NCBI GenBank assembly: GCA_943789005.1
Contig: CALSSL010000002.1
Span: 27,015 to 91,014, forward strand
DNA length: 64,000 nucleotides
DNA from: an uncultured SAR86 cluster bacterium
GTDB lineage: Bacteria; Pseudomonadota; Gammaproteobacteria; Magnimaribacterales; D2472
Direction of reading: 5' to 3'
Numbering within the stretch: position 1 is the stretch's first letter; each line of letters begins with the position of its first letter. Positions 40,528 through 62,672 of the stretch are shown piece by piece. The notes beneath the pieces were generated by a model, which saw only the letters and a list, made by a program, of their open reading frames with translations, had not been told where the DNA came from and did no database searches. The position numbers were made by a program, and so were the translations under genes.

Positions 40528-41412
40528 TTAAAATTTTATCTTCTCATCCTTATTCCAAATACCCCAATAAGCACCAACATCACCCTCTGCTTCTACTTTC
40601 CACGACTCATCAAATGATGAGAAATAAAACATATCAATATTTTCTTCTTTAGACCAAAGCTGAGCATCTATGAAATACTTAAGATAATTTCTATATGAAG
40701 GATGCGCCCCCCATAAGTCACTTCCTTTGCTTGGCCATCCAGTCTCTGTGATAATAACTTTTTTTCCATTAGAGGCTTTAATAGCTTCATTGTACATATC
40801 TTTCATGTACAGCAAAGAATACTCAGAAGCACAGCCTTCCCAAAATGGATAACAGTTTGCAAGAATAACATCACAAGCGTTGGTTATGCTGGGTCTGTCT
40901 CTAAACTCGTAGTAAGCATCAACATAACCCACCGGAATACTAGGAGTATTTGCTTTAACATGATCTATATAAGAAATTAACTGATGCTCTTCTAACTCTT
41001 TTCGATAAATAACTTCATTGCCTACTGCTGCTATATTTACCAAACCCTCACTTGATAATTTTAATAAGCCATCAATTTCTTTTTCGTTATTACTGAGGTC
41101 GTCTGATAACCATGCACCTACTAATGTTTTAAAACCCATATCTACAGCTATTTCGACAATTCTTGCATGCTCACTTATTGATGAAAAGGTTCTTATCCAA
41201 TCTGTGTAAGGCTTCAATATATTTAAACGTCTGATAATCTGCTCATCATTAACAAAGTCACCAGGTTGTTGTTCGTCTTCATATAAACTAAAACACAAGC
41301 CATGAATTTTACTTTCTAGGATTTCATTGCATAGTTCTTGCAACTCTCCGTCTTTTAAATCATCTAAATTAATACCTAGCAAGGATTTAATTTTTTCATC
41401 TCTTAAAGACAT
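40528..41412 (-). CDS. GH17 beta-1,3-glucanase (no signal peptide)
   Basis: WIRTFS, AVGNEV, ANCYPFWEG, ITETGWPS, FSSFDESWK, VGAYWG. Confidence 0.88.
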   Translation of the reverse strand: MSLRDEKIKSLLGINLDDLKDGELQELCNEILESKIHGLCFSLYEDEQQPGDFVNDEQIIRRLNILKPYTDWIRTFSSISEHARIVEIAVDMGFKTLVGAWLSDDLSNNEKEIDGLLKLSSEGLVNIAAVGNEVIYRKELEEHQLISYIDHVKANTPSIPVGYVDAYYEFRDRPSITNACDVILANCYPFWEGCASEYSLLYMKDMYNEAIKASNGKKVIITETGWPSKGSDLWGAHPSYRNYLKYFIDAQLWSKEENIDMFYFSSFDESWKVEAEGDVGAYWGIWNKDEKIKF

Positions 41413-41414
41413 AA

Positions 41415-42845
41415 TTATTTCATTTCTCCATTAATCTGATTTAATTGATTTTTTATATCAGCTGCTCTTTGTTCATTGATTTCATAATCACTCATTATAT
41501 AAATAGCGAAAAGTGTTCCCAGAACTGGTATTGTTGAGTAAGCAATTCTTAAACCGGTTAAAGCTCCATCGGGCTGCGAAGATGCATCAGGAGAAAAACC
41601 CACGTACCACATAATCAAACCAGATATAAGACCAGCTAATGCAGTTCCAAGCTTTACCATCCACCAGTATATAGCAGCAAAAGAGCCTTCTTTTCTTGGA
41701 AGACCATTTTGCAACTCTTCATAATCACAAGCATCAGATGTCATGCTCATCATCAAGGTGAATAAACCTCCAATTCCAAATGAAAAGAATGGTAATGCAT
41801 ATAAAAACATGTGAGGTTTTCCTGGAATAAACAAGAACCAAAATAAAATGTAGCCAATAACTGAGATACTTTGAGAGATAATAAAAGTTTCTTTTTTACC
41901 ATAAATTTGTGCCATTTTTGATACCAAAGGAATTACCAGAAAAGTTGTTACAAGTGCGCCGACGCTTCCGTGAAGCGTAGGCCATGGAATTGCAGCTGAG
42001 GCATCGCCAGAAAATAAGTAATGAACAATTATAAAAAATGAAAATGCAGCAATTGTTTGAAACGAGTTAAAAACTAAAAAAGTTGCTATGCAAAGCTTTC
42101 TAAATGGCACATTTTGAAATGCGTCCTTAAAGATAATAAAAATATTTGTAAAACTTTTACCGATGTTCTCTTTTGTTACAGGAACTAAATAATCATCATT
42201 TAGTGTTGATTTACTTTTAATAAAGATAGCAGGAACAATAGCCAACAAAGTACACATTATTCCAAATACAACAGAAAGTATTCTTGTTCCAGATGCTGGA
42301 TCTACAAAAATATTTGGATCATATATAATAATCCAGATCCATGGAGCAAGGACCCAAGCAAACTGACCTATGAATTGTGATACTGCCATAATTCTTGTTC
42401 TTTCATGGAAGTTTTCACTCATTTCATAACCCATAGCAACAAATGGGATTCCAAAAATTGTTATACCAACATAAAAAAGAAGATTAAATATTAAAAAGTA
42501 CCAAAAATTAAAAACCTGACCATTTTCTGGATATAGTTGCCAGGACAATATAAATGCAATTCCAGTCAGAATGCCTCCAAAAAAAACATACTGTCTTCTT
42601 TTTCCCCATTTTGATTTTGTATTATCTGAAATAAAACCCATCAATGGGTCAGTAATGGCATCGATGAATCTTGGTACAAAAGCAATAATTCCATATAGTA
42701 ATGGGTTAAAGCCTAAATCTTGAATTAAAACGACTATAAATATAGATAATAATGCAGGGAACAATTGATTTGCTAGCATCCCAAGACCAAAAGCAATTTT
42801 TTGTCCCATCGGAACGCTATTATTAATTTCTTCTACATTATTCAT
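41415..42845 (-). CDS. GPH-family (MelB-like) oligosaccharide:cation symporter
   Basis: DAITDPLMGFISDNTKSKWGKRR, YEMS..HERT, RKEG.FAAIYWW; start moved to ATG 42845 behind AGGGGG. Confidence 0.88.
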   Translation of the reverse strand: MNNVEEINNSVPMGQKIAFGLGMLANQLFPALLSIFIVVLIQDLGFNPLLYGIIAFVPRFIDAITDPLMGFISDNTKSKWGKRRQYVFFGGILTGIAFILSWQLYPENGQVFNFWYFLIFNLLFYVGITIFGIPFVAMGYEMSENFHERTRIMAVSQFIGQFAWVLAPWIWIIIYDPNIFVDPASGTRILSVVFGIMCTLLAIVPAIFIKSKSTLNDDYLVPVTKENIGKSFTNIFIIFKDAFQNVPFRKLCIATFLVFNSFQTIAAFSFFIIVHYLFSGDASAAIPWPTLHGSVGALVTTFLVIPLVSKMAQIYGKKETFIISQSISVIGYILFWFLFIPGKPHMFLYALPFFSFGIGGLFTLMMSMTSDACDYEELQNGLPRKEGSFAAIYWWMVKLGTALAGLISGLIMWYVGFSPDASSQPDGALTGLRIAYSTIPVLGTLFAIYIMSDYEINEQRAADIKNQLNQINGEMK

Positions 42846-42870
42846 ATGAACACCCCCTGTACTCATATAT

Positions 42871-43866
42871 TTATTTGATGTCAAAATTTACGTATGCATC
42901 TTTTATAACATCAAAGGTTATTTTTTTATTCCTATTAATATCTACTATTCCCCAATATTCTTCGTTTGCTGTGCCGTCATAAGGTGTACCGTCACTATTT
43001 GGTGCAGATCCACCAGTGTCTTGCTTCTCAGGATTTCCTGCTTTCCATAAACCATCAGTAAATTGAAAAATAAATGATCCAATATTCTTATCACTGTTCG
43101 ATAAAACTTTATCTAAAATAATTTTATTTGCATTAGCTTGAGCGATTTGATTTTCGCCTTGTGTGTACTTTTCTGTTGATTTAGTCATATAACTGTCAGC
43201 ACCTAACTCTGCAAAATACATAGGCTTGTCACTAATTGCTTTCCATTCGTTAAAGATTGATTCTGGCTCATCCCATCTGTAAACATTCATTCCCCAAACT
43301 TGAACGCTAGATGCAATACTAATTGCATCTTTGCTCGGCAAATCACCGTGAGCAGAAGATACCAATCTGTTAGGATCCTCAATTTGAATCATTCTGGATA
43401 CCAACTCCATTGCTTTGTACCAGTTATTGATATCACCACCAAACCATTGAGGATTGTAATTATATTCATTTCCAAGTTCCCACATAAGGATAGCTTCATG
43501 ATTTTTATATTTTTTTACATAGTCTATAAAAGTGCCTGAAACAATATCAAAACGCCCTTTTTGGTTATATCCAAAAGTTATTACAACTTTAATTCCACCA
43601 GCTTGAAGCTCATCAAGCACTTCAATATCATCAATAGGCTCATAAACCCTTAGTGTGTTAATTCCAGCTTCTTTTATTAGAATTAAGTCTTCTGTAAGAG
43701 ATTCAAAACTTCTTTTTGTTTTTCCAATTTTTACAGGATGATAGCAAATTCCTTTCATATAAAAGGGTTTTCCATCAACAATCATTTTATTGTCTTTAAT
43801 CTCAACTTCTATACCAAATGAAAAAATAGAAAAGATTAAAAAAGTAAATATAAAACTATTTTTCAT
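42871..43866 (-). CDS. Secreted clan GH-A glycoside hydrolase (GH2-TIM/GH158-like)
   Basis: Signal peptide, AGINTLRVY, WELGNE, AELG, EEYWG; exact family uncertain. Confidence 0.7.
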   Translation of the reverse strand: MKNSFIFTFLIFSIFSFGIEVEIKDNKMIVDGKPFYMKGICYHPVKIGKTKRSFESLTEDLILIKEAGINTLRVYEPIDDIEVLDELQAGGIKVVITFGYNQKGRFDIVSGTFIDYVKKYKNHEAILMWELGNEYNYNPQWFGGDINNWYKAMELVSRMIQIEDPNRLVSSAHGDLPSKDAISIASSVQVWGMNVYRWDEPESIFNEWKAISDKPMYFAELGADSYMTKSTEKYTQGENQIAQANANKIILDKVLSNSDKNIGSFIFQFTDGLWKAGNPEKQDTGGSAPNSDGTPYDGTANEEYWGIVDINRNKKITFDVIKDAYVNFDIK

Positions 43867-43868
43867 GA

Positions 43869-45119
43869 TTATTCCTCGTTAATTGTTATCGGCGGTATGT
43901 TTGAAGTCTCTAATAAAGCTTCTAAATCACCATTAAAAGTTTTTACTATTGGATTTCCGCCTCTAGACAAATTGTCAAATACTCCATCATCTACTTTGTC
44001 CCATAATGGAAATTTAGCTTTACCGTCTACTGTGAATAAACCAAAATGATTTTCAGAGCCATTCTCATTTGATGAGTCCTTCCATGGCTCATCAAATGCA
44101 GAGAAATAAAAACAAGTAATCATTCTAGATTCACACTCAGAAGTAATCATTTTGAAGTACAGCCCTAACTTATATTCATCAGCTGCTTCACTTCCCTCAT
44201 AGCCATACAGGTCAGAAGCAACACTTGACCAGCCCGTTTCTCCAATATGAACTTCTTTTGATGGATCAATTTTGTGAACATAATTTTGAACGCTTTCAAA
44301 TTGATTCATTTCATAATCAATAGCTCTTTGCATGGCGTCATGAATAACTTTTTTCTTATCTTGATTTTCATCGTATTCATCTAGATTCCAAAAACTAGGA
44401 TTGTAATGAGTATCATGAAAGGCATACGTATGCATTGATATAAAATCAACTGATCTAATGAGTTCATTTAGATCTTCGTTGTGATAGTCTGCAGAGCCAC
44501 CACCCCAAGATGCAAAGTTATCTGAACTTGTAATCCAAATATCACTATTTAGTTCACCTCTAGCTTTTAAAGCTTGTAAATATTTTACCCACCCTAAAAT
44601 AAATTTGGGAGGCAGCCAATAACCCCAAGCCCAATGAACCATTGCCTCATTCCCAACGGCTATTATTTTTACAATTTCAGGATATTCTTGCGCAAGTCTT
44701 ATTGCTTCATTTATCTCAAATTTGTTTCCCTCATAGTCTTCTTTAGAATTTATAGGCTTTTCTGTAAAGGCATCTTTAGATTGAATCCATGCTCCAAGCA
44801 TTACATACATCTCAAAATTATTATCTACTTGTTTTATTTCTCTAATTGCTTTGAGTGTGTTTTCAGCAAAAGGATGATGCAAATCATAAGTTCTAAAGAC
44901 TCTAAACCCTTGAGCATGCATTATATAAAGATCTTCTTTAATTTCATTTATTGAAGGTTGTTCCTGTCTAGATTTTGCTCTATATCCACCGTATGAGATT
45001 GCAGGATATTCAGGGTTGCCTATAAATTCTTTCGCACTCTTGTTCATACTCAAGTCTCCAGATTCGCTACAAGAAACTAATAAAAATGAAGTAATAATAA
45101 AAAATCTTATTTTTTTCAT
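43869..45119 (-). CDS. GH17 beta-1,3-glucanase, lipoprotein
   Basis: Lipobox LVSC, AISYGGYR, AVGNE, IGETGW, FSAFDEPWK, SENHFGL. Confidence 0.88.
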   Translation of the reverse strand: MKKIRFFIITSFLLVSCSESGDLSMNKSAKEFIGNPEYPAISYGGYRAKSRQEQPSINEIKEDLYIMHAQGFRVFRTYDLHHPFAENTLKAIREIKQVDNNFEMYVMLGAWIQSKDAFTEKPINSKEDYEGNKFEINEAIRLAQEYPEIVKIIAVGNEAMVHWAWGYWLPPKFILGWVKYLQALKARGELNSDIWITSSDNFASWGGGSADYHNEDLNELIRSVDFISMHTYAFHDTHYNPSFWNLDEYDENQDKKKVIHDAMQRAIDYEMNQFESVQNYVHKIDPSKEVHIGETGWSSVASDLYGYEGSEAADEYKLGLYFKMITSECESRMITCFYFSAFDEPWKDSSNENGSENHFGLFTVDGKAKFPLWDKVDDGVFDNLSRGGNPIVKTFNGDLEALLETSNIPPITINEE

Positions 45120-48100
45120 TTCATAACATTTACATATATAGCGTTGATTAAATTTGTTCTATTAAAAATACTTTGTGAGCTTTCAATATCTAACTCATGA
45201 CCATTAATTAGTTTTTCAGTATTATCTTTGTATGAAATTTTAATGTCCTCTATGTCAGATAGACTATAAATTATTGGAACTTGACAAATTGTGTATGCTA
45301 AAGAATTTATAGGTAATTCAAGATAATTAATATCATGTTCTAAATTTACAAATTTAAAAGATTTTTCTTCAGACATGAATTCAGTTTTTCGCAATAAGGT
45401 TGGTTCGAAGGTAATTTTGCCTTCATTAACAAAAAACCCTAATTCATAAAATCTACTTACAATATCTTCTTTTACCTGACCTGTCATACCAGGTTGCTGA
45501 ACACCCCTTCCCCTAGGTGTATGTGAGTACGGGTCTGTAGGAAAAGCTCCATATAATTCAGGCGATTTATTGACTCCAATTCCTTCATTAATTTCAAAAT
45601 AATGATCAAAAAATCTCCCAATAATTTTTGAATCACTTTTTTTGGAGATAGATTTTTGAGTAACCTCTGCAGAAGCTAATAGCAGTTTTGAAACCATATG
45701 CCAGTAGATTGATCCCAATCCTTCATATCCATAGAAAGTTCCAGACCTTCCTGTAAAGGATTTATGATCAAAGACATGTTCAAATATGTCTAAAATAATA
45801 TCTTTTTCCTCTTGTAATAAAGATTGATACTTTTCCGGTAGCTTCTCAAGCTCATCTTGTAATGATCCAGCATTATGAAATAACCCATTGAAATGATATT
45901 TTGCATTAATATCTTTTTCTATAATTTGATTATTACCGTCTTTAACTAGCTCATGAAGCAAGGACGATCTATTGAATTCCTTTTCAGGAATAATATTCTT
46001 GTCTAAAAACCCTAATAATTCTTTGTTTGGATAAAGAATATAACTATATTGATCATCCCAAAATAAATCACTATCTTTTAAGCTATCTAAAACAGATAAA
46101 CTTTCTTCTTCAGAAAGATAACCAGAGCTTAAAACACCCACTTGACCTTCAAGCATCTCAGAAAGTCTATCAATAGTAATTTCTTGATCACCAAGATTTA
46201 CAAGATTATAAGCATGATAAAGACCATCTTCTCTTTTATTGGTTTCAATTGATTTCTCTAAGGCATTGATAGCTATTTCAAAAAAGTGAATTATTCGAGA
46301 TTTATCTAATGATTCTTTGGTACCAGAAAAATAAGAAGTATAAATTCTATCCCTGTACTCAGCTGCAACCTCTCCAATGTCATCAACAAATCTTTTACGA
46401 TCTTTATGATTTAAATTTAAATCTAATGCACTAAATGATGTATTTAATTTTTCAAAAAAATGAAATAGTTCAGTTGATATTTCAAATGAAGAAGATGAAT
46501 TCTTTTCAAGTACATTTTTAAAAAAGCTTAGAAAACGTCTTAAATAATAAAGGGTTACCATTGAAACACCATTCCCAACAAGAGCATTATTGGCATCATT
46601 CCATTCTGGTCTTTGTGTGTTCATCCAAATGCCTGCACCAGGTATAAAATTTGATAACTTTGCTAGGACTGTAGTCAATATTTTTTCAAGAAAATTAACT
46701 TCATGAATTAATCCTTGATAATTCTTTAAAATAGCCCCATCTGCTCCCTCATTAATCCTATCTCTTTCAATTTTCTCTGCTAACTTAAAATTAAAATCTA
46801 TAGTATTTTTTGGGTCAGCATAAATGGACTTATAGTCCTTGATTTCATAAGGGACATTTGCATATACAAAATCATTTTTGCTAAGAAATGAATCAAGCCT
46901 TTGAGGAAAATAGTTTTCAGAAAATTCTAAGAATTTTAATAAATAAATAATTTGATGGTCACCCCAGTAACCAATGTAAGACCAAGGATTATCTGGTTCA
47001 ATAGTCTCCCAATCAAATCCATCTTTTGTGAGCCTGTAAGGGTTATATCCATCAAAGGTAGAAGCATTTAGAAATCTATATATCATCCCATCAATAAATT
47101 GAGGATAAGAGTATGCTAATGCTTCCCAATTTTGAAATATATCTCTCCAATTACCCTGATAATCAAGAACCTTTTCACCCGTTGCATCATCACGTGTATT
47201 GATAGAAAATTTATTCCACGGTCTGCTTGGATCTCCATGCCTTCTGCTGAATTTGATTGGTAAATATTCTGTAGCAAGTCTTTTAAGGACATTAGACTTT
47301 AAGGCACTTGTTGCATCTCGTAAAAAGTTTAAATCAAAATTATCTGGCCATTCAGCAAAAGTAGGTGTCATATCCTTGCTGAGTTTTTTATTAGCATTAC
47401 CTATATATTTAATAAAATCATCTTTTTCAATAATATAATCTCTATCAAATATCCCTCCCCTCATGATATTAAAAAGTGTATTTGCAAAATGTCTTATATT
47501 TCTTCTTCTGTCAGTTGAGAGCTGAATGCCATCTGAAGAACCTACGAGTTTATAAAGATCATTTGATGAATTGAGTATTTCTTTCTTTATTTCTTGAATT
47601 AGATTGTTATTAGTAATAATTTCATTCTTTAAGGTAGCGATATCTGAAGAAGATTTATTGATATCTGCTGCAAACAACCATTCTTTTTTTTCATTCTGTT
47701 CTAAAGAAAAGTCTGAATTTATAAAATAAGCACCTCTTTCAGCCTTAATATCAAGCTCTTCTAGTACCTGATGACCTTTTCTAAATTTATCTAGCTGATT
47801 TGATGACAGTAAAACCTTATTGCTTTCTAAACCAAGATGAAATACTACATTTGATTTTAATGCCTCACTTGGTTCTGCGCGGTCAACTATGGTTGCGCTC
47901 AGAGCATAAATTCCTATTTTTGAATCAAAATCTAGTTCATTTCTTTTGTATGCATCTGCTAAATTACTTGTGCTGCTTTGTATGCCCTCATTAAGGCCCC
48001 AAGGTAATATATTTTGAAACCCATCTAAGATGGATAATGATAGATTTTGTTCGCTTAAATTCTTTATTGAAGATGTTTTTATAAAACCGTATTTATCGCA

Positions 48101-48562
48101 AGTAGACCATTGATATGAAAATTTAATACCCAGATCATGATTTATTTCTTCAAAAATTATTTTATTACCCCTGAGGTTTTTATAAAGATTTCTTTCATTT
48201 CTATAAACAAGATCACAAGATTTTGTAAAAGGTTCCCATAAATAGGTTTTATCATTTTTGTTCACATGAAATATAGATTTATTTCCAGTAACCTCGAATG
48301 ATTCTGATATTTTGTCATCTGTATAGTATGGGAATAAAGCGTTATTGCTATTTTTTCTTCCTGCGCTCAGTGCACCAGTAGATGAAATAAATAACCAATG
48401 ATCATAAGCACTCACAATGCTCATAAAAAAAGGTCTCATTTTATTTACATTTGAGATCTTATAAAAGTTCTCATGCTCAATAACTACCTCTTTTCCAGAT
48501 ATTTCAAGATCTGATGAATTAATAAGATTATCACCAAGATATAATTCTTTTTTGTTGCTCAT
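45116..48562 (-). CDS. GH149 beta-1,3-glucan phosphorylase
   Basis: 1148 aa; FSRRHGDPSRPWNKF, YQGNWRDIFQNWEAL, YEGLGSIYWHMVSKL, YGAFPTDPYSHTP, QQPGMTGQVKE. Confidence 0.88.
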   Translation of the reverse strand: MSNKKELYLGDNLINSSDLEISGKEVVIEHENFYKISNVNKMRPFFMSIVSAYDHWLFISSTGALSAGRKNSNNALFPYYTDDKISESFEVTGNKSIFHVNKNDKTYLWEPFTKSCDLVYRNERNLYKNLRGNKIIFEEINHDLGIKFSYQWSTCDKYGFIKTSSIKNLSEQNLSLSILDGFQNILPWGLNEGIQSSTSNLADAYKRNELDFDSKIGIYALSATIVDRAEPSEALKSNVVFHLGLESNKVLLSSNQLDKFRKGHQVLEELDIKAERGAYFINSDFSLEQNEKKEWLFAADINKSSSDIATLKNEIITNNNLIQEIKKEILNSSNDLYKLVGSSDGIQLSTDRRRNIRHFANTLFNIMRGGIFDRDYIIEKDDFIKYIGNANKKLSKDMTPTFAEWPDNFDLNFLRDATSALKSNVLKRLATEYLPIKFSRRHGDPSRPWNKFSINTRDDATGEKVLDYQGNWRDIFQNWEALAYSYPQFIDGMIYRFLNASTFDGYNPYRLTKDGFDWETIEPDNPWSYIGYWGDHQIIYLLKFLEFSENYFPQRLDSFLSKNDFVYANVPYEIKDYKSIYADPKNTIDFNFKLAEKIERDRINEGADGAILKNYQGLIHEVNFLEKILTTVLAKLSNFIPGAGIWMNTQRPEWNDANNALVGNGVSMVTLYYLRRFLSFFKNVLEKNSSSSFEISTELFHFFEKLNTSFSALDLNLNHKDRKRFVDDIGEVAAEYRDRIYTSYFSGTKESLDKSRIIHFFEIAINALEKSIETNKREDGLYHAYNLVNLGDQEITIDRLSEMLEGQVGVLSSGYLSEEESLSVLDSLKDSDLFWDDQYSYILYPNKELLGFLDKNIIPEKEFNRSSLLHELVKDGNNQIIEKDINAKYHFNGLFHNAGSLQDELEKLPEKYQSLLQEEKDIILDIFEHVFDHKSFTGRSGTFYGYEGLGSIYWHMVSKLLLASAEVTQKSISKKSDSKIIGRFFDHYFEINEGIGVNKSPELYGAFPTDPYSHTPRGRGVQQPGMTGQVKEDIVSRFYELGFFVNEGKITFEPTLLRKTEFMSEEKSFKFVNLEHDINYLELPINSLAYTICQVPIIYSLSDIEDIKISYKDNTEKLINGHELDIESSQSIFNRTNLINAIYVNVMK

Positions 48563-48569
48563 AATTTAA

Positions 48570-54235: not shown

Positions 54236-56028
54236 CAGAAAATTGAAGCCCCCTTTTCAACAGTGTTAACGCTTTCTCTAAATGATTTAAATAACTCTCT
54301 ACCGACGCCATTATGATTATGCTCAATATTAGAATGGGTTCTTGTTTTAAGAATCTCATCATCAACTAATAATTTAAAAGTTCCCTTATTGATATCTAAT
54401 TCAACCAAATCATTATCCTCAATTAAACCAATTGGACCTCTATGAATAGCCTCTGGAGTAACATGAATTACAGCAGGAACGCTTCCAGATGCACCAGACA
54501 TTCTTCCATCAGTAATAATCGCAATATCAAAACCTTTAGATTGAAGAACATTAAGTGGAGATGTTAATTTATGAAGCTCAGGCATTCCATTTGCTGAAGG
54601 CCCTTGCCCTCTGATTATGATAATTGTATCTTTGTTTAATTGATTATTTCCGAAAGCATTGAGAACATCTTCTTGATCTTCAAATACTGTTGCAGGGGCT
54701 TTAATAATAGTTTCTGAATTATTTAATGCTGATGTCTTGATAATACCCTTTCCAAGATTACCATTTAATAGCTTTAAACCACCTGATTGTTTAAAAGGGT
54801 TATTACTGTCTCTAATGATACTTTGATCCAAAATAGCTGATTGATTATTCCAAACCAAGTTATCATTTTCTATTTCTAATTTATTTCTATAAATATCCAA
54901 TCCATTACCAAGTAAAGTTTGTACATCATTAAATAAAAAATCTCCATCCAATAGTGATCCAATAAATGCAGATACACCTCCAGCATTATGGAAATCATTA
55001 ACATCTGCTGTTCCATTAGGATATATATTTGTAATTATGGGAGTTAACGAGGCAATTTCATCTATATCCTCTATAGTGATTTGATAACCCCCAGCTTCTG
55101 CCATAGCAATCAAATGTATGGCTAAGTTTGTTGAGCCTCCGCTAGCAATTAATGCAACCATGGCATTAATCCAGCTTTTTGAATCAAGCATCTCCCCCAT
55201 CTTTATGTTTTGCTCACTCATATTTAAAATACTCTCAACTGTCTTATCAATAATCATCTGTCTTTCAATTGAATTTGGTGGAACAAAAGACGAGCTTGGT
55301 AATTGAAGGCCCATGACTTCCATTATCAACTGATTCGTATTAGCAGTGCCGTAAAAAGTGCAAGTGCCAGAAGTATGATATGCAGCCTGTTCTGAACTTA
55401 TAAGTGCAGATCTATCTATCTCACCGTTAGCAAATTTCTTTCTTGTGTCTGATTTTTGAGAGTTAGATATTCCTGTTGGCATAGGGCCAGCAGGAATGAA
55501 ACCAATAGGTAAATGACCAAATGTTAAAGCACCTATCATTAAGCCAGGAACAATTTTGTCACATACCCCTAAGCAAATTCCAGCATCAAAAACATTGTGA
55601 GAGAAGCCTACAGCAGTAGAAAGAGCTATGACATCTCTACTAAAAAGTGATAGTTCCATTCCGGGCTCACCTTGAGTAATGCCATCACACATAGCAGGAA
55701 CACCTCCTGCAACTCTGGCTATTGCATTTCTTTTTAATGAAGACTCTTTAATGACATCAGGATAGTCTTTAAGTGGTGCATGCGCTGATAGCATGTCATT
55801 ATATGCAGAGATAACTCCTATAACTTTTGCGCCATTTGCTGCCTCACCCTGTTGTGCTTTATCACATGAAGCAAAGGCATGAGCTATATTACTGCAACCC
55901 ATATTATTTCTTGCTGATTTACTATGATCAGATGAAAAATTTATTTTATTTAGATAGTCTGATCTAGAATCTTTACTGCGCTCATCAATTCTTTTTTTAA
56001 TATCAAGAAGTTTTGTTTTAATACTCAT
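54235..56028 (-). CDS. edd: 6-phosphogluconate dehydratase
   Basis: AYNDMLSAH, PAMCDGITQG, GTCTFYGTAN, GMPELHKL, TDGRMSGASG. Confidence 0.95.
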   Translation of the reverse strand: MSIKTKLLDIKKRIDERSKDSRSDYLNKINFSSDHSKSARNNMGCSNIAHAFASCDKAQQGEAANGAKVIGVISAYNDMLSAHAPLKDYPDVIKESSLKRNAIARVAGGVPAMCDGITQGEPGMELSLFSRDVIALSTAVGFSHNVFDAGICLGVCDKIVPGLMIGALTFGHLPIGFIPAGPMPTGISNSQKSDTRKKFANGEIDRSALISSEQAAYHTSGTCTFYGTANTNQLIMEVMGLQLPSSSFVPPNSIERQMIIDKTVESILNMSEQNIKMGEMLDSKSWINAMVALIASGGSTNLAIHLIAMAEAGGYQITIEDIDEIASLTPIITNIYPNGTADVNDFHNAGGVSAFIGSLLDGDFLFNDVQTLLGNGLDIYRNKLEIENDNLVWNNQSAILDQSIIRDSNNPFKQSGGLKLLNGNLGKGIIKTSALNNSETIIKAPATVFEDQEDVLNAFGNNQLNKDTIIIIRGQGPSANGMPELHKLTSPLNVLQSKGFDIAIITDGRMSGASGSVPAVIHVTPEAIHRGPIGLIEDNDLVELDINKGTFKLLVDDEILKTRTHSNIEHNHNGVGRELFKSFRESVNTVEKGASIF

Positions 56029-57485
56029 TTTTTTGAGGGTCCATTTTTCCAAGCTCTAAAATCTCTTTTAATAAGAAGGTCAGCATTCGATGGCCCCCAA
56101 CCTCCAGAAATGTATTCTTCCATAGGTACATCTTCAGATTTCCACAAATTTATAATGTTATCAATCCATTTCCAAGAAGCTTCAATTTCGTCTCTTCTTA
56201 CAAATAAAGATGGATTTCCTTTGATTACATCTAATAGTAGTCTCTCATAGCAATCTTGATGCCCAATTTCATGATACTCGTTAAGATTTAGATCTAAAGG
56301 CAAGTTCTCAAGATCATAACCAGATACACCTGGACGCTTTGTGTTGAGCTTTAAATCTATACCTTCATCTGGATGAATCCTCAAAACTAATTGACCAGGT
56401 TCTAAATGGGCTCCTTTAGAAAAAATGTTATGTGGAACTGTTTTATAGCGAACTACAATCTCAGATGATTTTGATTGCATTCTTTTTCCAGTTCTTAAAT
56501 AAAAAGGAACGCCTGACCATCTCCAATTATTAATTTCTAATTTTAAAGCCACAAATGTCTCAGTTTGGTTCTTAGAATCAACACCTTCTTCATCAAGATA
56601 AGCGCATGCTGCCTCTCCTTTGGAGATACCTTCAAGGTATTGTGCTCTTACTGAATTAACAGCAATATTATCTGATGTGAATGGTGCGAGCGATTTTAAA
56701 ACTTTTAGCTTTTCATCCCTTACTGATTCACTTTGAATAGAAACAGGAGGTTCCATTGCTATAAGGCATAAAATTTGAAGAAGATGATTTTGCACCATGT
56801 CTCTAAGTGCACCTGTTTCATCGTAATAGCCACCTCTATCCTCAACACCTAAATCTTCTGCAACTGTTATTTGTATATGATCAATGGCTGAGCTTGACCA
56901 ACTTTTCTCAAAGATAGTATTAGCAAATCTTAAGGCTAATAAATTTTGAACAGCTTCTTTGCCTAGGTAATGATCAATTCTGTATATTTGATTTTCTTTA
57001 AAACCTTGTGAAAGAGAATTATTAATATCCTCTGCGGTTTCTAAATCAGAGCCAATTGGCTTTTCAACAACTATTCTACAATTATCTTTTATTAGATTAT
57101 TATCATTCAGCGCCGATGAGATTTTTTTATATAAATTTGGCGGGGTTGCTAAATAGTAAACCACAGCAACACTATCTGAAACATTGTTTATGTTTTTCCA
57201 GTCTTCATTAGAGTTGATGTCTAACTTTATATATTGAAGCCTCTTAGCAAATTTTAGCCACGCATCTTTTTGTTGTTCAAAATCAATATAATATTTATTC
57301 AATGATTCATTAACCATTGATATATATTCTTCAGCTGATAAGTCTCTTGAACCAATGCCAATAATCTGGCTGGCATCATCAATATTTCCTAATGTTTCTT
57401 GTCGAAACATAGCAGGAATTAACTTTCTATTTGAAAGATCACCGGTACCACCAAATAGATAAAGATCAAAAGTATTAAGTTCCAT
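56025..57485 (-). CDS. zwf: Glucose-6-phosphate 1-dehydrogenase
   Basis: GGTGDL, EKPIG, RIDHYLGKE, RDMVQNH, GVPFYLRTGKR. Confidence 0.97.
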   Translation of the reverse strand: MELNTFDLYLFGGTGDLSNRKLIPAMFRQETLGNIDDASQIIGIGSRDLSAEEYISMVNESLNKYYIDFEQQKDAWLKFAKRLQYIKLDINSNEDWKNINNVSDSVAVVYYLATPPNLYKKISSALNDNNLIKDNCRIVVEKPIGSDLETAEDINNSLSQGFKENQIYRIDHYLGKEAVQNLLALRFANTIFEKSWSSSAIDHIQITVAEDLGVEDRGGYYDETGALRDMVQNHLLQILCLIAMEPPVSIQSESVRDEKLKVLKSLAPFTSDNIAVNSVRAQYLEGISKGEAACAYLDEEGVDSKNQTETFVALKLEINNWRWSGVPFYLRTGKRMQSKSSEIVVRYKTVPHNIFSKGAHLEPGQLVLRIHPDEGIDLKLNTKRPGVSGYDLENLPLDLNLNEYHEIGHQDCYERLLLDVIKGNPSLFVRRDEIEASWKWIDNIINLWKSEDVPMEEYISGGWGPSNADLLIKRDFRAWKNGPSKK

Positions 57486-59092
57486 TAAATGATTCCCTTA
57501 AAAAGTTTATTTCGTTAAGTTGTTTTGATAAATCTGTTACGAACCTGGCTGCATATGCTCCATTAATTACCCTATGATCATAAGAAAGTGAAATTGGTAA
57601 GAGTTTTTGGTTAATAATATTTTTACCGTCTAAAAATAAGTTATCAAAGGGTTTTGATAAACCAAGAATTCCTACCTCTGGAGGGTTTATTATAGGAGTA
57701 AAATATTTACCGCCAATACCACTCAAAGAGGTTATGGTAAATGATGCACCCTTGAGTTGATCAACTTTTAACTTTCTTTCTTTTGCTAGTTTAGCAAGAT
57801 TAAAAACCTCATCTGATATTTCTAAAATTGTTTTTTTGTCAGTATTTTTTATGTTAGGAACAATAAGACCTTCAGGAGTATCAACGGCTATACCTATATT
57901 AAAGTAATCTTTCATTACAACTGTATCTAGGTTGGATGAAAGAGAGGTATTCATTAGAGGGATAGAGTTTTAAAGTTTCTACTGTTGCTTTAATGATATA
58001 AGCTAAAGGTGAAACTTTGGTTTTATTAGATTTATTTAACTCAGCTCTTAAAGCAAGCAAGTCTGTAATATTTGCATCATCGTGTTGAGTAACATGAGGA
58101 ATATTGATCCAAGAGGTATGGAGATTTTTTGAAGCTGTTTTTTGAAATTTAGATAGCTTTTCAAAGCTTACCTGACCCCATTTTGAAAAATCAATATCTG
58201 GTTGAGAGAATTCAAATCCACTTCCAGTTTTTGAATTTAAGCGCTGTGAAACAAATGCATGAAGATCTTCTTTTAATATTCTTCCTTTTGGACCAGAGCC
58301 TTTAACCTCAGATAAGTTTATACCAAATTCTCTAGCAAGTTTCCTTGTTGCTGGTCCTGAATGAACAGAGACATTGTTATAACTCAAAGGCTGACTTACT
58401 TGTTCTTTGTTGTTATTTGTTTTTTCTTGTTTTGTAATATGTTCATTTTTAGAAATAGAAATTGAATCTTCTTTTTCATTAATTTTATTTAATGGTTTTG
58501 GGACAGCCACACTTGACTCAATTTCTACAAATGGCATGCCGGCTTTTACCATGTCGCCTAGGCTAATATTTAATTTAGTAACTTTGCCCGCAACTGAAGC
58601 TGGTATCTCCATAGCAGCTTTATCAGTTTCAAGTATCATAATAGAATCATCTATTCCAACATTTTGGCCAACCTCAACACAAATCTCTATTACCTCTACC
58701 TCTTCAACATCACCAAGATCTGGAATCAAAGGTTTTGCTAAAACTATTTCATTTTTATTAATATCTTCTTTTTCAGAAGATACTTGAATTTCTTTGTTGT
58801 GTGCTTTTTTTTTGTTTTTTTGTGCTATTTGATCAGTATTGGATTTTTTTTCTTCTTCAACCTCAATTTGAACAAATGGAGTTCCTTCTTTAACCATATC
58901 ACCGACATTAACAAGAATATTCTTAACAATACCAGATTCAGTAGTTGGAATTTCCATGGCTGCTTTATCTGTTTCAAGGATTAATATTGAGTCTTCAGCT
59001 TCTACGCTTTGCCCAATCTCTACACAAACCTCAATAACCTCTACCTCTTCAACATCACCAAGATCTGGAATATTAAGATTTAAATCAGGCAT
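57475..59092 (-). CDS. aceF: Pyruvate dehydrogenase E2 with two lipoyl domains (frameshift near 57960)
   Basis: Two ETDKA motifs, HSGPATRKLARE E3-binding domain, SYDHRVING. Confidence 0.93.
58692..59071. repeat. Identical 35-nt direct repeat at the start of each lipoyl domain (58692-58726 and 59037-59071)
   Basis: ACCTCTACCTCTTCAACATCACCAAGATCTGGAAT occurs twice. Confidence 0.9.
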
Positions 59093-61728
59093 TAAACTTC
59101 CCAAGGATTTGGTTTAAGAGGATCGACTTCAAGATCTTCGTATATTTCTTTTAATTTATTTTTATCAATTAAGTTATTTTTAAATAATGTGTATGCAGCT
59201 GCTCTTACTATGCTCTTAGCATCTATTTCAAAAAATTCTCTTAAATTTTTTCTAGAATCACTTCTTCCAAAACCATCTGTTCCTAAAACAGTATAATCAG
59301 ATTTAATATATGGTCTTATTTGCTCTGCATAAGCCCTCATATAATCAGTAGATGCTATTACAGGTATCTCGCTATCAGCAAAACACTTTTCGACGTATGT
59401 TTTTTCTTCTTTTTTTGTAGGATTTAATTGATTTAATCTTTCAACTTCCATACCATCTTTTCTAAGTAAATTGAAGCTTGTTACACTCCAAACCTCTGAT
59501 TCAATTCCAAAATTATTAAGCATGTCTTTAGCCTGTATTGATTCATTTAAGATTGAACCGGAACCTAAGAGTCTTATTAATGGTTTTTTTGAAGATAATA
59601 ATTTATACATTCCTTTGATAATTCCATCTTCTGCACCTTTTGGCATAGGAGGATGTTCATAATTTTCATTCATGGTTGTTATGTAATAAAAATAATTCTT
59701 TTGTTCAACAAACATTTTTTGGATACCGTCTTTAATAATCACAGCAACTTCATATGAAAAAGTTGGATCATATGACAAGCAATTTGGGATTGTTGAAGAA
59801 AATATATGACTATGACCATCCTGATGCTGAAGCCCTTCTCCATTAAGAGTGGTTCTTCCAGATGTGGCGCCAATTAAAAAGCCTTTAGCTTGAGAGTCAC
59901 CTGCAGCCCATGCTAAATCATGAATTCTTTGAAAACCAAACATTGAATAAAAAAGATAGAAAGGAATCATTGGATAATCATAGTTTGTATATGCTGTTGC
60001 CAATGCAGACCAGGCAGAGAAAGCGCCTGCCTCAGTTATGCCCTCTTCAAGCATTACTCCTTCTTTTGATTCCTTATACCACATTACTTTATCAGCATCT
60101 TCAGGTTCATAGTTTTGACCTTCTGCGGAATAAATTCCAACCTGTCTAAATAAAGCTTCCATTCCAAATGTTCTTGCTTCATCAGGTACAATTGGAACAA
60201 TTCTTTTACCTATCTCTTTATCCTTTAGTAAATCGGTTATAACTCTGACAGCTGCCATTGTTGTAGAAATTTTTCTTTCATCTGAGCCTGAATACAACTT
60301 AGTGAATGCTTTGTTATCAGGCATTGGAAGAATTTCAGATTTTGTTCTTCTTCTAGGGATTGGTCCTCCTAATTTTGCTCTAGTATTTTTTAGATACTGC
60401 ATTTCAGGTGAATTCTCAGGCGGTCTAACATAAGGTATATTTTCTATCTCATCGTCAGTTACTGGAATATTAAACTTATCCCTGAATGACTTAATGTTAT
60501 CTAGTGATAATTTTTTAACCTGATGGGTGGTATTGTCTGCCTCTCTAGAGCCAACACCGTATCCTTTGGTTGTTAAAGCCAATATTACAGTCGGTGCTCC
60601 AGAAGAATTAACTGCCTTATGATATGCAGCATAAACTTTATAAGGGTCATGACCGCCTCTATTTAATTTATATATATCTTCATCAGTTAAATCTTCTACA
60701 ATTTTTAGAACATCTGGATCCTTTGCAAAGAAATTTTCTCTAGTATATGCACCGCCTTTAGCTTTAAAATTTTGCATTTCCCCATCTAATACAGCATCCA
60801 TAATATCTTGCAGTTTGCCTTCTTTATCTTTTGCCATTATTGGATCCCATTTTCTACCCCAAACGACTTTGATAACATTCCATCCAGCTCCCCTAAAAGA
60901 ACCCTCTAGCTCCTGAATGATTTTTCCATTACCTCTAACAGGACCATCTAATCTCTGCAAGTTGCAATTTATTACAAAAATTAGATTTTCTAAGTTCTCT
61001 CTTCCGGCTAGGGCTATTGCACCTTTTGATTCTGGTTCATCCATCTCTCCATCACCACAAAAAACCCATACTTTTCTATCATTTCTTGGAACTAAACCTC
61101 TTGCAGACATGTATCTCATTATATGAGCTTGATATATACCCATAATTGGTCCAAGACCCATTGATACTGTTGGGAATTGCCAATAATCTGGCATTAGCCA
61201 TGGATGTGGATATGAAGACAATCCTGGTTTTTTTACCTCTCTTCTAAAATTATCTAAATCTTCTTCATGAAGATACCCTTCTAAAAAAGATCTAGCATAT
61301 ATCCCAGGAGATGAATGACCTTGAAAATAAATCAGATCTTCTAATTGCCCTTCCGAACCTCTAAAAAAATAATTAAAACCTATATCATACAAAGTTGCAG
61401 CTGATGAGAAGGTTGATATATGTCCGCCTAAATCATCATCATTCTTATTTGCTCTTAAAACCAAAGCTAAAGCATTCCATCTTATTAAAGAACGAATTCT
61501 TCTTTCCATAAATAAATCACCAGGCATCTGTGCCTCGTCTTTTGGTGGAATTGAATTTCTAAAAGGTGTTGTGAGGTTGTATGAAGGAATTGCTCCCTCT
61601 TCATTTAATTTCTTAGCGAGTTTTGTCATTAAGAATGAAGCTCTTTCAACACCCTCTTTCTCAATAACGCTATCTATAGCTTCTAACCATTCACTTGTTT
61701 CTATAGGATCTTTGTCTTCAGGTATCAT
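59092..61728 (-). CDS. aceE: Pyruvate dehydrogenase E1, homodimeric type
   Basis: DPIETSEWL, GGHIS, FPTVSMGLGP, GDGEMDEPES, PDEARTFGME, GEGLQHQD. Confidence 0.97.
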   Translation of the reverse strand: MIPEDKDPIETSEWLEAIDSVIEKEGVERASFLMTKLAKKLNEEGAIPSYNLTTPFRNSIPPKDEAQMPGDLFMERRIRSLIRWNALALVLRANKNDDDLGGHISTFSSAATLYDIGFNYFFRGSEGQLEDLIYFQGHSSPGIYARSFLEGYLHEEDLDNFRREVKKPGLSSYPHPWLMPDYWQFPTVSMGLGPIMGIYQAHIMRYMSARGLVPRNDRKVWVFCGDGEMDEPESKGAIALAGRENLENLIFVINCNLQRLDGPVRGNGKIIQELEGSFRGAGWNVIKVVWGRKWDPIMAKDKEGKLQDIMDAVLDGEMQNFKAKGGAYTRENFFAKDPDVLKIVEDLTDEDIYKLNRGGHDPYKVYAAYHKAVNSSGAPTVILALTTKGYGVGSREADNTTHQVKKLSLDNIKSFRDKFNIPVTDDEIENIPYVRPPENSPEMQYLKNTRAKLGGPIPRRRTKSEILPMPDNKAFTKLYSGSDERKISTTMAAVRVITDLLKDKEIGKRIVPIVPDEARTFGMEALFRQVGIYSAEGQNYEPEDADKVMWYKESKEGVMLEEGITEAGAFSAWSALATAYTNYDYPMIPFYLFYSMFGFQRIHDLAWAAGDSQAKGFLIGATSGRTTLNGEGLQHQDGHSHIFSSTIPNCLSYDPTFSYEVAVIIKDGIQKMFVEQKNYFYYITTMNENYEHPPMPKGAEDGIIKGMYKLLSSKKPLIRLLGSGSILNESIQAKDMLNNFGIESEVWSVTSFNLLRKDGMEVERLNQLNPTKKEEKTYVEKCFADSEIPVIASTDYMRAYAEQIRPYIKSDYTVLGTDGFGRSDSRKNLREFFEIDAKSIVRAAAYTLFKNNLIDKNKLKEIYEDLEVDPLKPNPWEV

Positions 61729-61769
61729 ATATGTATCAAATTTTATGAATCTAATTTTACTTTAGATTA

Positions 61770-61784
61770 TGTTAAAAATATACA
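61770..61784. promoter_or_regulatory. HexR operator (aceE-proximal)
   Basis: TGTTAAAAATATACA, a 15-bp TGT-N9-ACA dyad. Confidence 0.55.
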
Positions 61785-61807
61785 ATATTAAGTAGATATC
61801 TTAAATA

Positions 61808-61824
61808 TTGTAAATAAATTACAA
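61808..61824. promoter_or_regulatory. HexR operator (hexR-proximal)
   Basis: TTGTAAATAAATTACAA matches the gammaproteobacterial HexR dyad TGTAA-N5-TTACA. Confidence 0.75.
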
Positions 61825-61841
61825 ATATATATAATTATGTA

Positions 61842-62672
61842 ATGATTTTAGACACATTAGTAAATGGTGGGGTTAAATTAAGCAAATCTGAGAAATGGAT
61901 TGCCCTCTCTGTATTAAATAATCCATCTAAAGTTATCAATCAATCCATAACCTCTTTGGCTGCTGAAGCAGGTGTAAGCCTTCCAACAGTCAATAGGTTT
62001 TGTAAAAAGCTTGGATTCGATGGTTATCCTTCTTTTAAAATTCAAGTTGCGCAAGAAATTACTAATACCAATGAATTATTAGATAGATTTAACGTTCATA
62101 AGGATACTCCTGAAGTTGTTAAAAGAGTTATGGCTGATATTCAATCAACAATTGTAAATGTGGGTCAAAATTTAAATCCAGAATCCATTGACAAAGCAAC
62201 AGACCTTTTGGCTAATGCAAGCAGTATTACTTTTTTTGGTTTAGGCGGATCCGGGCCAGTTGCTTTAGATGCGCAACATAAGTTTTTTAGATTTGGTGTC
62301 CCTGTTGTAGCACATACTGATTATATAAATCAAAGAATGATAGTTTCAATGATGAAAGAAGGCGATTTGTTAGTTTTAATATCGTTTACAGGAAGAACAA
62401 CTGAAATTGTAGAAACTGCTAAGATTGCTAAAAAAAATGGGGTCAAGACAATTGCCCTTACCTCAGAAAAGTCTCCTTTGGCAAAGCTTTCTAACGTGGT
62501 TCTTCATATTCATACCCATCTTGAAAATAATCTTCATATCCCTATGACATCTAGACTTGCTCATTTGGCTATTATTGACATCTTATCTGCAACGGTTCAA
62601 GCAAGATTCGGAAAGGTTTTTGATACCAGAAAGGATGAGGTTATTAAAAATATAGAAAAAACTAGGGTCTAG
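61842..62672 (+). CDS. hexR: RpiR-family regulator HexR
   Basis: LSKSEK, VSLPTVNRFC, FFGLGGS, VALDAQHKFFR, ISFTGRT, PMTSRLA; divergent from ED genes. Confidence 0.92.
   Translation: MILDTLVNGGVKLSKSEKWIALSVLNNPSKVINQSITSLAAEAGVSLPTVNRFCKKLGFDGYPSFKIQVAQEITNTNELLDRFNVHKDTPEVVKRVMADIQSTIVNVGQNLNPESIDKATDLLANASSITFFGLGGSGPVALDAQHKFFRFGVPVVAHTDYINQRMIVSMMKEGDLLVLISFTGRTTEIVETAKIAKKNGVKTIALTSEKSPLAKLSNVVLHIHTHLENNLHIPMTSRLAHLAIIDILSATVQARFGKVFDTRKDEVIKNIEKTRV

Follow-up and report, generated by a model that had tools for sequence, protein, structure and literature searches.

This study addresses a stretch of 64,000 nucleotides (nt), referred to here as the window, from an uncultured SAR86 cluster bacterium (contig CALSSL010000002.1 of assembly GCA_943789005.1), a marine gammaproteobacterium with a genome of 1.27 Mb and 33% GC. 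The window carries a minus-strand array of thirteen genes, divergent from hexR, which includes genes for pyruvate dehydrogenase (PDH; aceE and aceF), the Entner-Doudoroff (ED) pathway (zwf, edd and eda), two symporters, a glucokinase (glk) and several proteins of glycoside hydrolase (GH) families (Table 1). Gene content and order were confirmed to be as first given in a preliminary description, which had been made from the sequence alone; the thirteen genes are borne out by open reading frames (ORFs) and by matches to Pfam, NCBIfam and PDB sequences. On balance, our analyses favor the view that these genes represent a real, conserved and modular catabolic array for the conversion of laminarin to acetyl-CoA, which would be gated by HexR and KDPG (2-keto-3-deoxy-6-phosphogluconate) and expressed by read-through from the aceE promoter. 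The pathway steps are inferred from family membership and the control from sequence comparison.

The hexR-aceE spacer and the predicted HexR regulon

Two HexR-like dyads had been proposed for the 113-nt spacer between hexR and aceE (61729-61841). Both were found, one as a perfect and one as a degenerate TGT-N9-ACA palindrome, and comparative evidence links both of them to HexR. The strong dyad is kept in all nine same-genus spacers analyzed (with a single changed inner base in one of them) and, with 2 changes from the search consensus, in 3/3 loci of two other genera. Genome-wide, it ranks within the top four TGT-N9-ACA sites by score; the hexR ATG follows 18 nt after it, and its orientation matches that of the site before gapA. 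The degenerate dyad is also present in 9/9 same-genus spacers (G008 has TGTG instead of TGTT), and the combination of a degenerate and a strong box at a distance of 39 bp recurs before gapA and in the gap between aceF and zwf of one relative, G042. In an alignment of the nine spacers, the conserved islands are the two boxes, ATTTTAC and TATAAT, the latter two containing the putative -10 hexamers of aceE and hexR, respectively. The strong dyad probably overlaps the -35/spacer region of the putative hexR promoter, in the putative promoter of aceE the -35 region probably coincides in part with the degenerate dyad, and, given that TATAAT is found 7 nt before the ATG, the hexR mRNA may be leaderless or nearly so. 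Internal operator candidates with 2 mismatches, found in edd and in the gene for the first GH17, are located in coding sequence and some are without TGT/ACA ends; they were rejected as chance matches or coding conservation.

Based on this layout, HexR would bind the strong and the weak operator, with the strong site covering the hexR promoter and the weak site covering the aceE -35 region. Without sugar, both promoters would be shut, and KDPG made by Edd would release HexR. Transcription from the aceE promoter would then read into most or all downstream genes, perhaps aided by weaker internal promoters, and HexR would in addition control both gap genes and pckA.

The genome contains 217 TGT-N9-ACA sites, 30 of which are intergenic. 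The best-scoring intergenic sites are found before a gap gene encoding a 500-amino acid (aa) protein, before gapA (encoding a 345-aa protein), between hexR and aceE, and before pckA, a set that, judged by sequence, is a classical HexR-type regulon. The box before gapA is identical in 6/6 HexR-bearing genomes, again with a degenerate box 39 bp before it, and the box before the 500-aa gap gene was found in 4/5 HexR-bearing genomes, with one mismatch in the fifth, and was absent in 2/2 HexR-less genomes. Similarly, no TGT-N9-ACA site was found upstream of aceE in 3/3 HexR-less loci. Orthologs of HexR, Edd and the 345-aa GapA were not found in G002, G010, G013, G004 and G003, the genomes of which are 78-86% complete; neither HexR nor Edd was found in any of the five searched genus members without the ED module (5/5). 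Conversely, hexR adjoins zwf, pgl, edd and eda in all 17 HexR-bearing loci, as far as the contigs reach. These distributions indicate that the ED genes, hexR, pgl and gapA are gained and lost together. The palindrome thus appears to be tied to the HexR of the array, and comparisons between genomes lend good support to the HexR reading.

A further TGT-N9-ACA site, TGTTCATTATTTACA, is found at 29642 (G000 C2:56656) between a gene encoding a response regulator (29717-30367) and the start of a histidine kinase gene (27645-29480); this site matches less well than those of gap, aceE and pckA.

The HexR protein and its paralog

The product of hexR shows the architecture of the HexR family, with an N-terminal HTH_6 and a C-terminal SIS domain. 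When compared to the KDPG contacts described for the RccR structure PaRccR 8JU9 (PMC11014249), six of these residues (S137, S181, T183, T186, H146 and R150) are conserved, and the two weaker contacts, H164 and T231, are replaced (I162 and N229). HexR therefore keeps the four phosphate-binding Ser/Thr residues as well as the His/Arg pair of the KDPG pocket, and is predicted to bind KDPG.

A second RpiR-family paralog adjoins uvrD (G000 C1:553847-554581; L060:2270-3112, minus strand) and is present in all five searched genus members without HexR. This paralog reaches 217 bits against the NCBIfam HexR model NF008451, and 243 bits against PaRccR 8JU9, compared to 154 bits for the aceE-adjacent HexR. 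Moreover, boxes of the RccR type, TGTAGT-N3-ACTACA, are found before aceA, encoding isocitrate lyase, and before a pntA-like gene (G000 C3:41026 and C1:744987). Both HexR- and RccR-type regulators hence seem to be present, and aceE bears HexR-type, not RccR-type, boxes.

Conservation and modular states of the array

A synteny survey, which the preliminary description had named as a way to check the array, showed that the gene order is kept in relatives across three genera. Among 17 hexR-bearing loci inspected, 11 show the gene order complete, from hexR through the last GH17 gene, on one stretch (G007, G023, G018, G020, G008, G015, G001, G009, G064, G043 and G042). These 11 loci come from a single family and cover three of its genera, protein identities being as low as ~50%; G064 and G043 belong to one of the two further genera and G042 to the other. 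The remaining six loci are broken by contig ends and are collinear within reach, with two exceptions: G022 is without the last GH17 gene, and in G019 (L040, C6:1-1554) a GH3 fragment at a contig end is inverted against the symporter gene, probably owing to chimeric assembly and not to a true rearrangement. HexR orthologs were found in 3/10 family genera sampled. GH149 was found in 18/24 other genomes of the genus and in 0/16 genomes from three other families of the order.

Shorter states of the array were found as well. In G002, the order is marC-aceE-aceF-symporter-GH3-glk, directly followed by the L33-like ORF that also follows the array in the window. From aceE on, the gene order in G010 is identical, with no match to marC, pgl or hexR upstream of aceE. 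G013 carries marC-aceE-aceF-symporter-GH3-glk-GH149, and is without zwf-edd-eda. In all three, aceF is directly followed by the symporter gene in contiguous sequence, and pgl, hexR, zwf, edd and eda are jointly absent from the G002 and G013 loci. Based on these comparisons, the array consists of four modules, with aceEF-symporter-GH3-glk as the core. In G042, a 162-nt gap between aceF and zwf carries the HexR-type box pair mentioned above (L156/L157) and looks like an unfused intermediate; in this genome, a GH30 gene (Pfam 4.9e-81; L157:3635-5080) is additionally found between the GH2-like gene and the transporter gene. The array could have evolved by fusion of aceEF, of zwf-edd-eda together with hexR and pgl, of symporter-GH3-glk, and of a Bacteroidota-type laminarin cassette without SusCD.

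AceE of the array's type was found in 21/24 genomes of the genus and in 3/5 genomes of one other family. It was not found in 11 genomes from two families of the same order, in which a search for the AceE type gave only weak, transketolase-like matches of ~30% identity; AceE-type PDH may be accessory in this order. Among 300 other genomes drawn from the whole class, an Edd ortholog was found in 25, all of which also carried AceE. In six of these 25, edd and aceE are on one contig, and in the other 19 they are on separate contigs; the nearest pairs, both in one genus, are 16 and 20 kb apart and on opposite strands, and adjacency of aceE and edd was found in none of the 25 Edd-bearing Gammaproteobacteria. 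With the top AceE match in each of 25 other Gammaproteobacteria, the window's AceE shares 56-61% identity. For its Edd, identity to the Edd proteins of 25 Gammaproteobacteria is 45-53%, and an IlvD paralog (32% identical) is a separate protein.

Gene content and the laminarin cassette

The assignment of the glycan genes to β-1,3-glucan, which had been proposed from the sequence, held in the comparison with characterized families. The GH149 protein scored 1731 bits against the NF058639 equivalog model (cut-off 1150) and matched PDB 6HQ6 over residues 15-1147 with an E value of 0 (1344 bits), supporting its prediction as a β-1,3-glucan phosphorylase, and the first GH17 matched FbGH17A. The second GH17 is above the gathering score of Glyco_hydro_17 (42.4 bits versus 28.2). 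The protein previously labelled GH2/158-like gave its best PDB matches to GH2 barrels (2e-6), and a match to the GH158 chain 9ORO (3e-4) over 90 residues only; both matches are distant and of the clan type. Among the transporters, the sodium:solute symporter reached 369 bits against NF007790, under the cut-off of 401, and is predicted to take up glucose, its substrate being inferred; the GPH/MFS_2 symporter is predicted to take up laminari-oligosaccharides.

Judged by eye, the N-terminus of GH3 probably represents a lipoprotein signal (LITSC), the first GH17 has a lipoprotein-like N-terminus (LLVSC) and the GH2-like protein has a signal peptide; GH149 and the second GH17 are without one. Export of the first three and retention of the last two fits extracytoplasmic cutting followed by cytoplasmic phosphorolysis. 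In the proposed route, the exported lipoprotein-type GH17 and GH3, together with the GH2/GH158-like barrel, would cut laminarin outside the cytoplasm, the Na+ symporter would import glucose and the GPH transporter would import β-1,3-oligosaccharides. In the cytoplasm, GH149 would phosphorolyze the oligosaccharides to glucose-1-phosphate, and the second GH17 and glucokinase would process the remainder. The products of zwf, pgl, edd and eda would lead to KDPG and then to pyruvate and glyceraldehyde-3-phosphate, and AceEF would convert pyruvate to acetyl-CoA. A phosphofructokinase gene is present in the genome, so that the ED pathway would not be the sole glycolytic route. While pgl has a function in the ED module, it is located downstream of marC, outside the thirteen-gene array, and converges with hexR.

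In species-representative genomes, a scan yielded 80 foreign GH149 loci, mostly from Bacteroidota, with 52-58% identity. Homologs of the FbGH17A-type GH17 were found in 70 of these loci, of the GPH transporter in 65, of the GH2-like protein in 58 (49-58% identity, at the same position) and of the second GH17 in 53, often in the exact gene order of the window. By comparison, homologs of aceE, aceF, zwf, edd, eda, glk, the sodium:solute symporter gene and hexR were found at E <= 1e-10 in none of the 80 loci within the flanks covered, many of which contig ends limit to less than 10 kb; the absence of aceE and aceF there agrees with the earlier statement on glycan loci, which were said to be separate from aceEF as a rule. 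The block from GH149 to the last GH17 can thus be identified, by sequence, as a Bacteroidota laminarin cassette without SusCD. The second GH17 is encoded by a separate ORF, 2 nt after the stop codon of the GPH transporter gene, and appears to be the unfused counterpart of the transporter-fused GH17 of Flavobacteriia (FbGH17B). The array lacks the SusC/SusD pair by which a polysaccharide utilization locus (PUL) is recognized in the Bacteroidota sense.

Table 1. Coordinates of the array, its regulator and predicted control elements in the window
Feature	Position	Strand	Evidence and remarks
hexR, RpiR-family regulator	61842-62672	+	Pfam HTH_6 1.9e-20, SIS 6.1e-23; divergent from aceE
Predicted strong HexR operator TGTAAATAAATTACA	61809-61823	.	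Perfect arms TTGTAA/TTACAA (TTGTAA-N5-TTACAA)
Predicted second, degenerate dyad TGTTAAAAATATACA	61770-61784	.	39 bp from the strong dyad
Putative hexR -10 hexamer TATAAT	61830-61835	+	Invariant in 9/9 spacers; 7 nt before ATG
Putative aceE -10 hexamer TAAAAT	61754-61759	-	ATTTTAC invariant in 9/9 spacers; TTAAAAT in G064, G043 and G042
aceE, pyruvate dehydrogenase E1, homodimeric type	59092-61728	-	Pfam PDH_E1_M 4.6e-109
aceF, dihydrolipoamide acetyltransferase E2	57475-59104	-	Pfam Biotin_lipoyl (two lipoyl domains), E3_binding, 2-oxoacid_dh, split over two ORFs
zwf, glucose-6-phosphate dehydrogenase	56025-57485	-	Pfam G6PD_C 1.5e-118, G6PD_N 2.5e-51
edd, 6-phosphogluconate dehydratase	54235-56052	-	Pfam ILVD_EDD_N 1.3e-91, ILV_EDD_C 1.6e-53
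eda, KDPG aldolase	53610-54235	-	Pfam Aldolase halves 1.5e-19 and 7.3e-22
Sodium:solute symporter (SSF, SGLT/YidK-like)	52024-53589	-	Pfam SSF 3.7e-65
GH3 exo-β-glucosidase, ExoP-type C-terminal domain	49480-52017	-	Pfam Glyco_hydro_3 6.3e-81, Glyco_hydro_3_C 4e-29, Exop_C 4e-13
glk, glucokinase	48570-49487	-	Pfam Glucokinase 3.1e-41
GH149 β-1,3-glucan (oligosaccharide) phosphorylase	45116-48562	-	NCBIfam NF058639; PDB 6HQ6; no signal peptide
GH17 endo-β-1,3-glucanase, FbGH17A type	43869-45119	-	PDB 6FCG 1.1e-148; Pfam Glyco_hydro_17 31.4 bits (cut-off 28.2)
GH2-like exported TIM-barrel glycosidase	42871-43866	-	Pfam Glyco_hydro_2_C 9.6e-13
GPH/MFS_2 cation symporter	41415-42884	-	Pfam MFS_2 5.4e-62; TIGR00792 gph 191.5 bits, under the cut-off of 231
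GH17, second, without signal peptide	40528-41412	-	Pfam Glyco_hydro_17 9e-11; PDB 4WTP 2e-33
pgl, 6-phosphogluconolactonase	62819-63436	-	Pfam Glucosamine_iso 6.2e-38

Several other genes were identified in the window. An ORF of 64 aa at 40271-40465, weakly L33-like (Pfam E value 0.0024, under the cut-off), follows the array in all of its module states; a TATAAT belonging to this ORF is located in the 62-nt gap, and the ORF is therefore probably not part of the array. A type II secretion cluster (19808-27374), encoding GspC-like, D, E, F, G, I, J and K proteins and pseudopilins, is located 13 kb from the array and could export the signal-peptide-bearing glucanases. At 4198-7280, a gene encoding a P-II protein is followed by two tandem ammonium-transporter genes.

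Gene packing and transcription

All 12 junctions of the array are overlaps or gaps of at most ~25 nt, in line with the overlapping or under-30-nt junctions given in the preliminary description. The largest gap, between eda and the symporter gene, is 20 nt, and the junction between the GH2-like and GPH genes represents a 14-nt overlap or a ~25-nt gap, depending on start codon choice. In the window's genus, aceF and zwf overlap by 11 nt and zwf and edd overlap as ATGA, which leaves no intergenic room; in the window, the probable edd start is the ATG at 56028, which overlaps the zwf stop codon. However, such packing is the norm in this genome: according to crude ORF calls, the median gap between 897 same-strand neighbor pairs is 5 nt, with 69% of gaps <= 30 nt and 92% of the genome coding. 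Assuming independence, twelve consecutive tight junctions have a probability of ~0.011; elsewhere in the genome, runs of 13-15 genes were found three more times. Gene packing is thus at most suggestive of operon status.

The preliminary description reported no obvious internal terminator. Indeed, the 11 terminator-like sites found in 40000-59999 (8.2 +/- 3.0 in shuffles) include none that is intergenic, and promoter-like sites are fewer than expected (73 versus 99 +/- 9 in shuffles). In the RNA-labelled run X19, depth is uneven and contigs bridge 7/12 junctions, crossing the module borders glk/GH149, GH3/symporter and aceE/aceF. Two further RNA-labelled runs, X3 and X7, were discarded as transcription evidence, given that their depth is flat at ~30-45, like that of the DNA run among the four, and that an X3 contig crosses the hexR-aceE spacer. 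Candidate intrinsic terminators after the array were rejected as well; both the 62-nt gap after the last GH17 gene (z = -0.46) and the sequence after the L33-like ORF (z = +1.13) fold no better than shuffles. A Shine-Dalgarno sequence is found before the symporter gene in every genome, and extended -10 or TATAAT-like boxes are found 25-40 nt before its ATG in G002, G010, G013 and G022, with TATAAG in the window; a conserved promoter at this position was rejected, as no -10/-35 pair is common to all lineages.

A number of observations, including the loss of X3 and X7 as evidence, weigh against the proposed HexR-gated array. As tight junctions are the genome norm, they represent weak evidence for an operon, and as the flanking genes (marC, the L33-like ORF and ORFs of 367 and 286 aa) are equally syntenic, order conservation by itself is weak evidence too. 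The X19 contigs are compatible with polycistronic RNA and are no proof of it, since a contig over two genes is not the same as one RNA; in addition, the X19 aceE contig has a depth of 87 compared to 2-33 elsewhere, so that separate units are possible, although contig depth cannot rank genes. The G042 box pair and the symporter -10 boxes indicate that internal promoters exist or existed in relatives, and they are plausible here. The core aceEF-symporter-GH3-glk persists without HexR, such that the link to PDH is independent of this regulator, and the degenerate dyad may function as a promoter element and not as an operator. HexR itself gave NF008451 as its best NCBIfam model with 264 bits, below the cut-off of 296. 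With regard to the pathway, lpdA is located elsewhere in the genome, and the phosphoglucomutase step is not encoded in the array, with two phosphoglucomutase/phosphomannomutase genes found elsewhere. Finally, no TonB-dependent receptor or SusD family was found among the window ORFs scanned with Pfam (ORFs of at least 110 aa in 1-40300, with one overlapping frame omitted, plus the thirteen genes and their flanks), a gap in the proposed route at the step of outer-membrane uptake.

Some of these observations would fit an arrangement of several transcription units, in which HexR controls hexR and aceEF, with gap and pckA elsewhere, and the other modules mainly use their own promoters, located in the 3' ends of the upstream genes. 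The modules are separable (G002 and G010 have the core only, and G013 is without zwf-edd-eda), zwf of G042 is preceded by a HexR box pair of its own, and the -10-like boxes before the symporter gene, the high depth of the aceE contig and the small gaps throughout the genome are all in accordance with it. Nevertheless, the overlaps at aceF/zwf and zwf/edd, the single operator region found in 26 kb at <= 1 mismatch, the absence of a -10/-35 pair kept before the symporter gene across genera, the depletion of promoter-like sites and the X19 contigs across module borders argue against this arrangement, which we regard as unlikely, if still a serious contender. In a simpler account, gene packing would have no regulatory meaning for the glycan genes, the dyads would serve hexR autoregulation only, and the neighborhood would be a by-product of streamlining or synteny. 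The position and orientation of the strong box before hexR, the syntenic flanks and the frequency of small gaps could all be explained in this way. On the other hand, the weak box adjoins the conserved TAAAAT on the aceE strand, with the same layout found before zwf in G042, and the boxes vanish upstream of aceE where HexR is absent; moreover, all array genes fit one pathway, and their linkage was seen neither in the 80 foreign GH149 loci nor in the 25 ED-bearing Gammaproteobacteria. This account is thus improbable, and read-through from a HexR-gated aceE promoter is the reading retained here.

Frameshifts in aceF and eda

In the assembly, aceF is found in two frames (401 and 159 aa), as is eda (104 and 93 aa), which could indicate that the pathway is decaying, with both genes being pseudogenes and the array being non-functional in this organism. 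Alignment of contigs from four public runs to 42000-61999 showed that the assembly has one extra base in aceF near 57957-57962, which is absent from all contigs of the 3 runs covering this site, with depths supporting one base fewer of 35.7/35.7, 52.9/52.9 and 45.2/45.3. In eda, one base is missing after 53942, and an extra G is found there at full depth in 4/4 runs. The frame is hence restored at both sites in every contig of the four public runs, and no other differences separate these contigs from the window. Both genes are also in frame in G007, and aceF is in frame in other relatives. Since the run contigs restore the frame, relatives are in frame and other genes are split alike, the frameshifts in aceF and eda are assembly errors, not decay, and a non-functional array is highly improbable.

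Among the other genes split in the assembly are uvrD, which is found as 557 and 166 aa (L060:3155-5328, G000 C1), lpdA, which has matches in three frames (G000 C1:96043-97454), and probably a photolyase-related gene at 36737-38231, where DPRP (299 aa) and FAD_binding_7 (217 aa) matches are located in overlapping ORFs. Together with aceF and eda, these genes point to an indel-prone assembly.

Comparison with known systems

The regulatory part of the array resembles the HexR and RccR systems of Pseudomonas in that an RpiR-type regulator with helix-turn-helix and SIS domains, a KDPG signal, autoregulation, and gap and pckA in the regulon (the last three predicted here) are found in both. In Pseudomonas, KDPG relieves the repression of aceEF by RccR at two 15-bp sites (Campilongo et al. 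2017, PMC5489143), and two 15-bp sites of the TGT-N9-ACA type are likewise found upstream of aceE here. The Pseudomonas RccR sites, TGTAGT-N3-ACTACA, are 68 bp apart, and Pseudomonas HexR uses TTGT-N7-8-ACAA; by contrast, in the array it is a HexR-like paralog that adjoins aceE, the boxes, TGTAAAT-N-ATTTACA, are 39 bp apart, and aceEF is physically joined to ED and glycan genes. A metabolite-sensing repressor gene beside aceE and aceF is also known from the pdhR-aceEF-lpdA operon of Enterobacteria, in which aceE and aceF are transcribed together; in the lineages covered by one regulon study, Shewanella and Vibrio among them, aceEF was assigned to PdhR, and HexR regulons with gap and pckA were described (PMC5343134). 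Unlike in that operon, the regulator here is of the RpiR/HexR and not the GntR/PdhR type, the presumed signal is KDPG and not pyruvate, lpdA is located elsewhere, and eleven further genes follow aceF.

For Shewanella and Vibrio, the HexR regulons that Leyn et al. described in 2011 reportedly involve a 15-bp TGT-N9-ACA palindrome and extend beyond zwf-edd-eda to gap and pckA.

The cassette resembles the laminarin PULs of Flavobacteriia, which include a 'variant 1' among those described (Sidhu et al. 2023, PMC10108472), with GH149-GH17(A)-[GH2-like]-MFS/GPH-GH17(B) in the same order and on the same strand at 50-60% identity. The activity of FbGH17A has been reported for Formosa, along with a second GH17 (FbGH17B) that is fused to a transporter of the major facilitator superfamily (MFS) and acts as an exo-β-1,3-glucosidase (Unfried et al. 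2018, PMC6246565). In contrast to these PULs, the array has no SusC, SusD or TonB receptor gene, its transporter and GH17B genes are unfused, and the cassette is appended to glk, the Na+ symporter, ED and aceEF genes behind a predicted HexR operator. Clusters for laminarin use have been reported for 4/14 SAR86 species (Francis et al. 2021, PMC8371827), and the cluster of one SAR86 metagenome-assembled genome (MAG) is described as GH17 and MFS genes, sometimes with GH158 (PMC10108472). Like those of SAR86 and SAR92 MAGs, as far as described in the passages available, the array belongs to small-genome marine Gammaproteobacteria and combines GH3, GH17 and MFS genes without SusCD; the same passages report flanking extracytoplasmic function (ECF) sigma factors for SAR92 clusters and make no mention of ED, aceEF or HexR for either group. 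A 2025 preprint, in which sources of sugar acids are sought, found the ED pathway only in a few genera, nearshore ones that all belong to one SAR86 family (10.1101/2025.06.17.660167); it notes a lacZ/uidA-like gene, and laminarin is unmentioned in the portions of its text available to us.

The preliminary description had left open whether the arrangement was new. KDPG control of aceEF and SAR86-type laminarin clusters have both been reported before, and this part of the novelty does not stand; the linked arrangement does, in that a full-text literature search, within the texts it covered, yielded no text in which aceEF is described as linked with ED and laminarin genes or as placed under HexR. 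The components and the regulatory logic all have precedent, and what is new is their fusion, the modular natural variants and the presence of HexR rather than RccR or PdhR at aceEF.

Implications

Laminarin represents one of the largest marine organic-carbon fluxes, and SAR86-type bacteria, which are uncultured, are among the most abundant heterotrophs in the surface ocean. A more specific model can be put forward tentatively, although we would sooner expect it to fail in part than to hold in full. In this model, PDH in this SAR86-type family would be a sugar-dedicated accessory enzyme licensed by KDPG through HexR, in place of RccR or PdhR, and one HexR-gated promoter, with a bipartite operator spaced at 39 bp, would drive a single transcript of ~21 kb. 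This transcript would have arisen from stepwise fusion of four modules, including the Bacteroidota-derived cassette, with the internal HexR promoter that survives in G042 having been erased elsewhere.

If this model is true, one molecular decision would commit the cell to all steps between algal glucan and acetyl-CoA. The array provides a testable account of laminarin use without the SusCD machinery of Bacteroidota and would explain the patchy occurrence of the ED pathway in this group, as the ED genes travel with HexR, gapA and the array. It may also represent a case of operon growth in which intermediates survive in nature: two are without ED genes, one being the bare core and the other the core together with a cassette, and a third, found in a relative, has an internal HexR promoter. 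Control of PDH through KDPG by HexR itself would extend the RccR paradigm beyond Pseudomonas.

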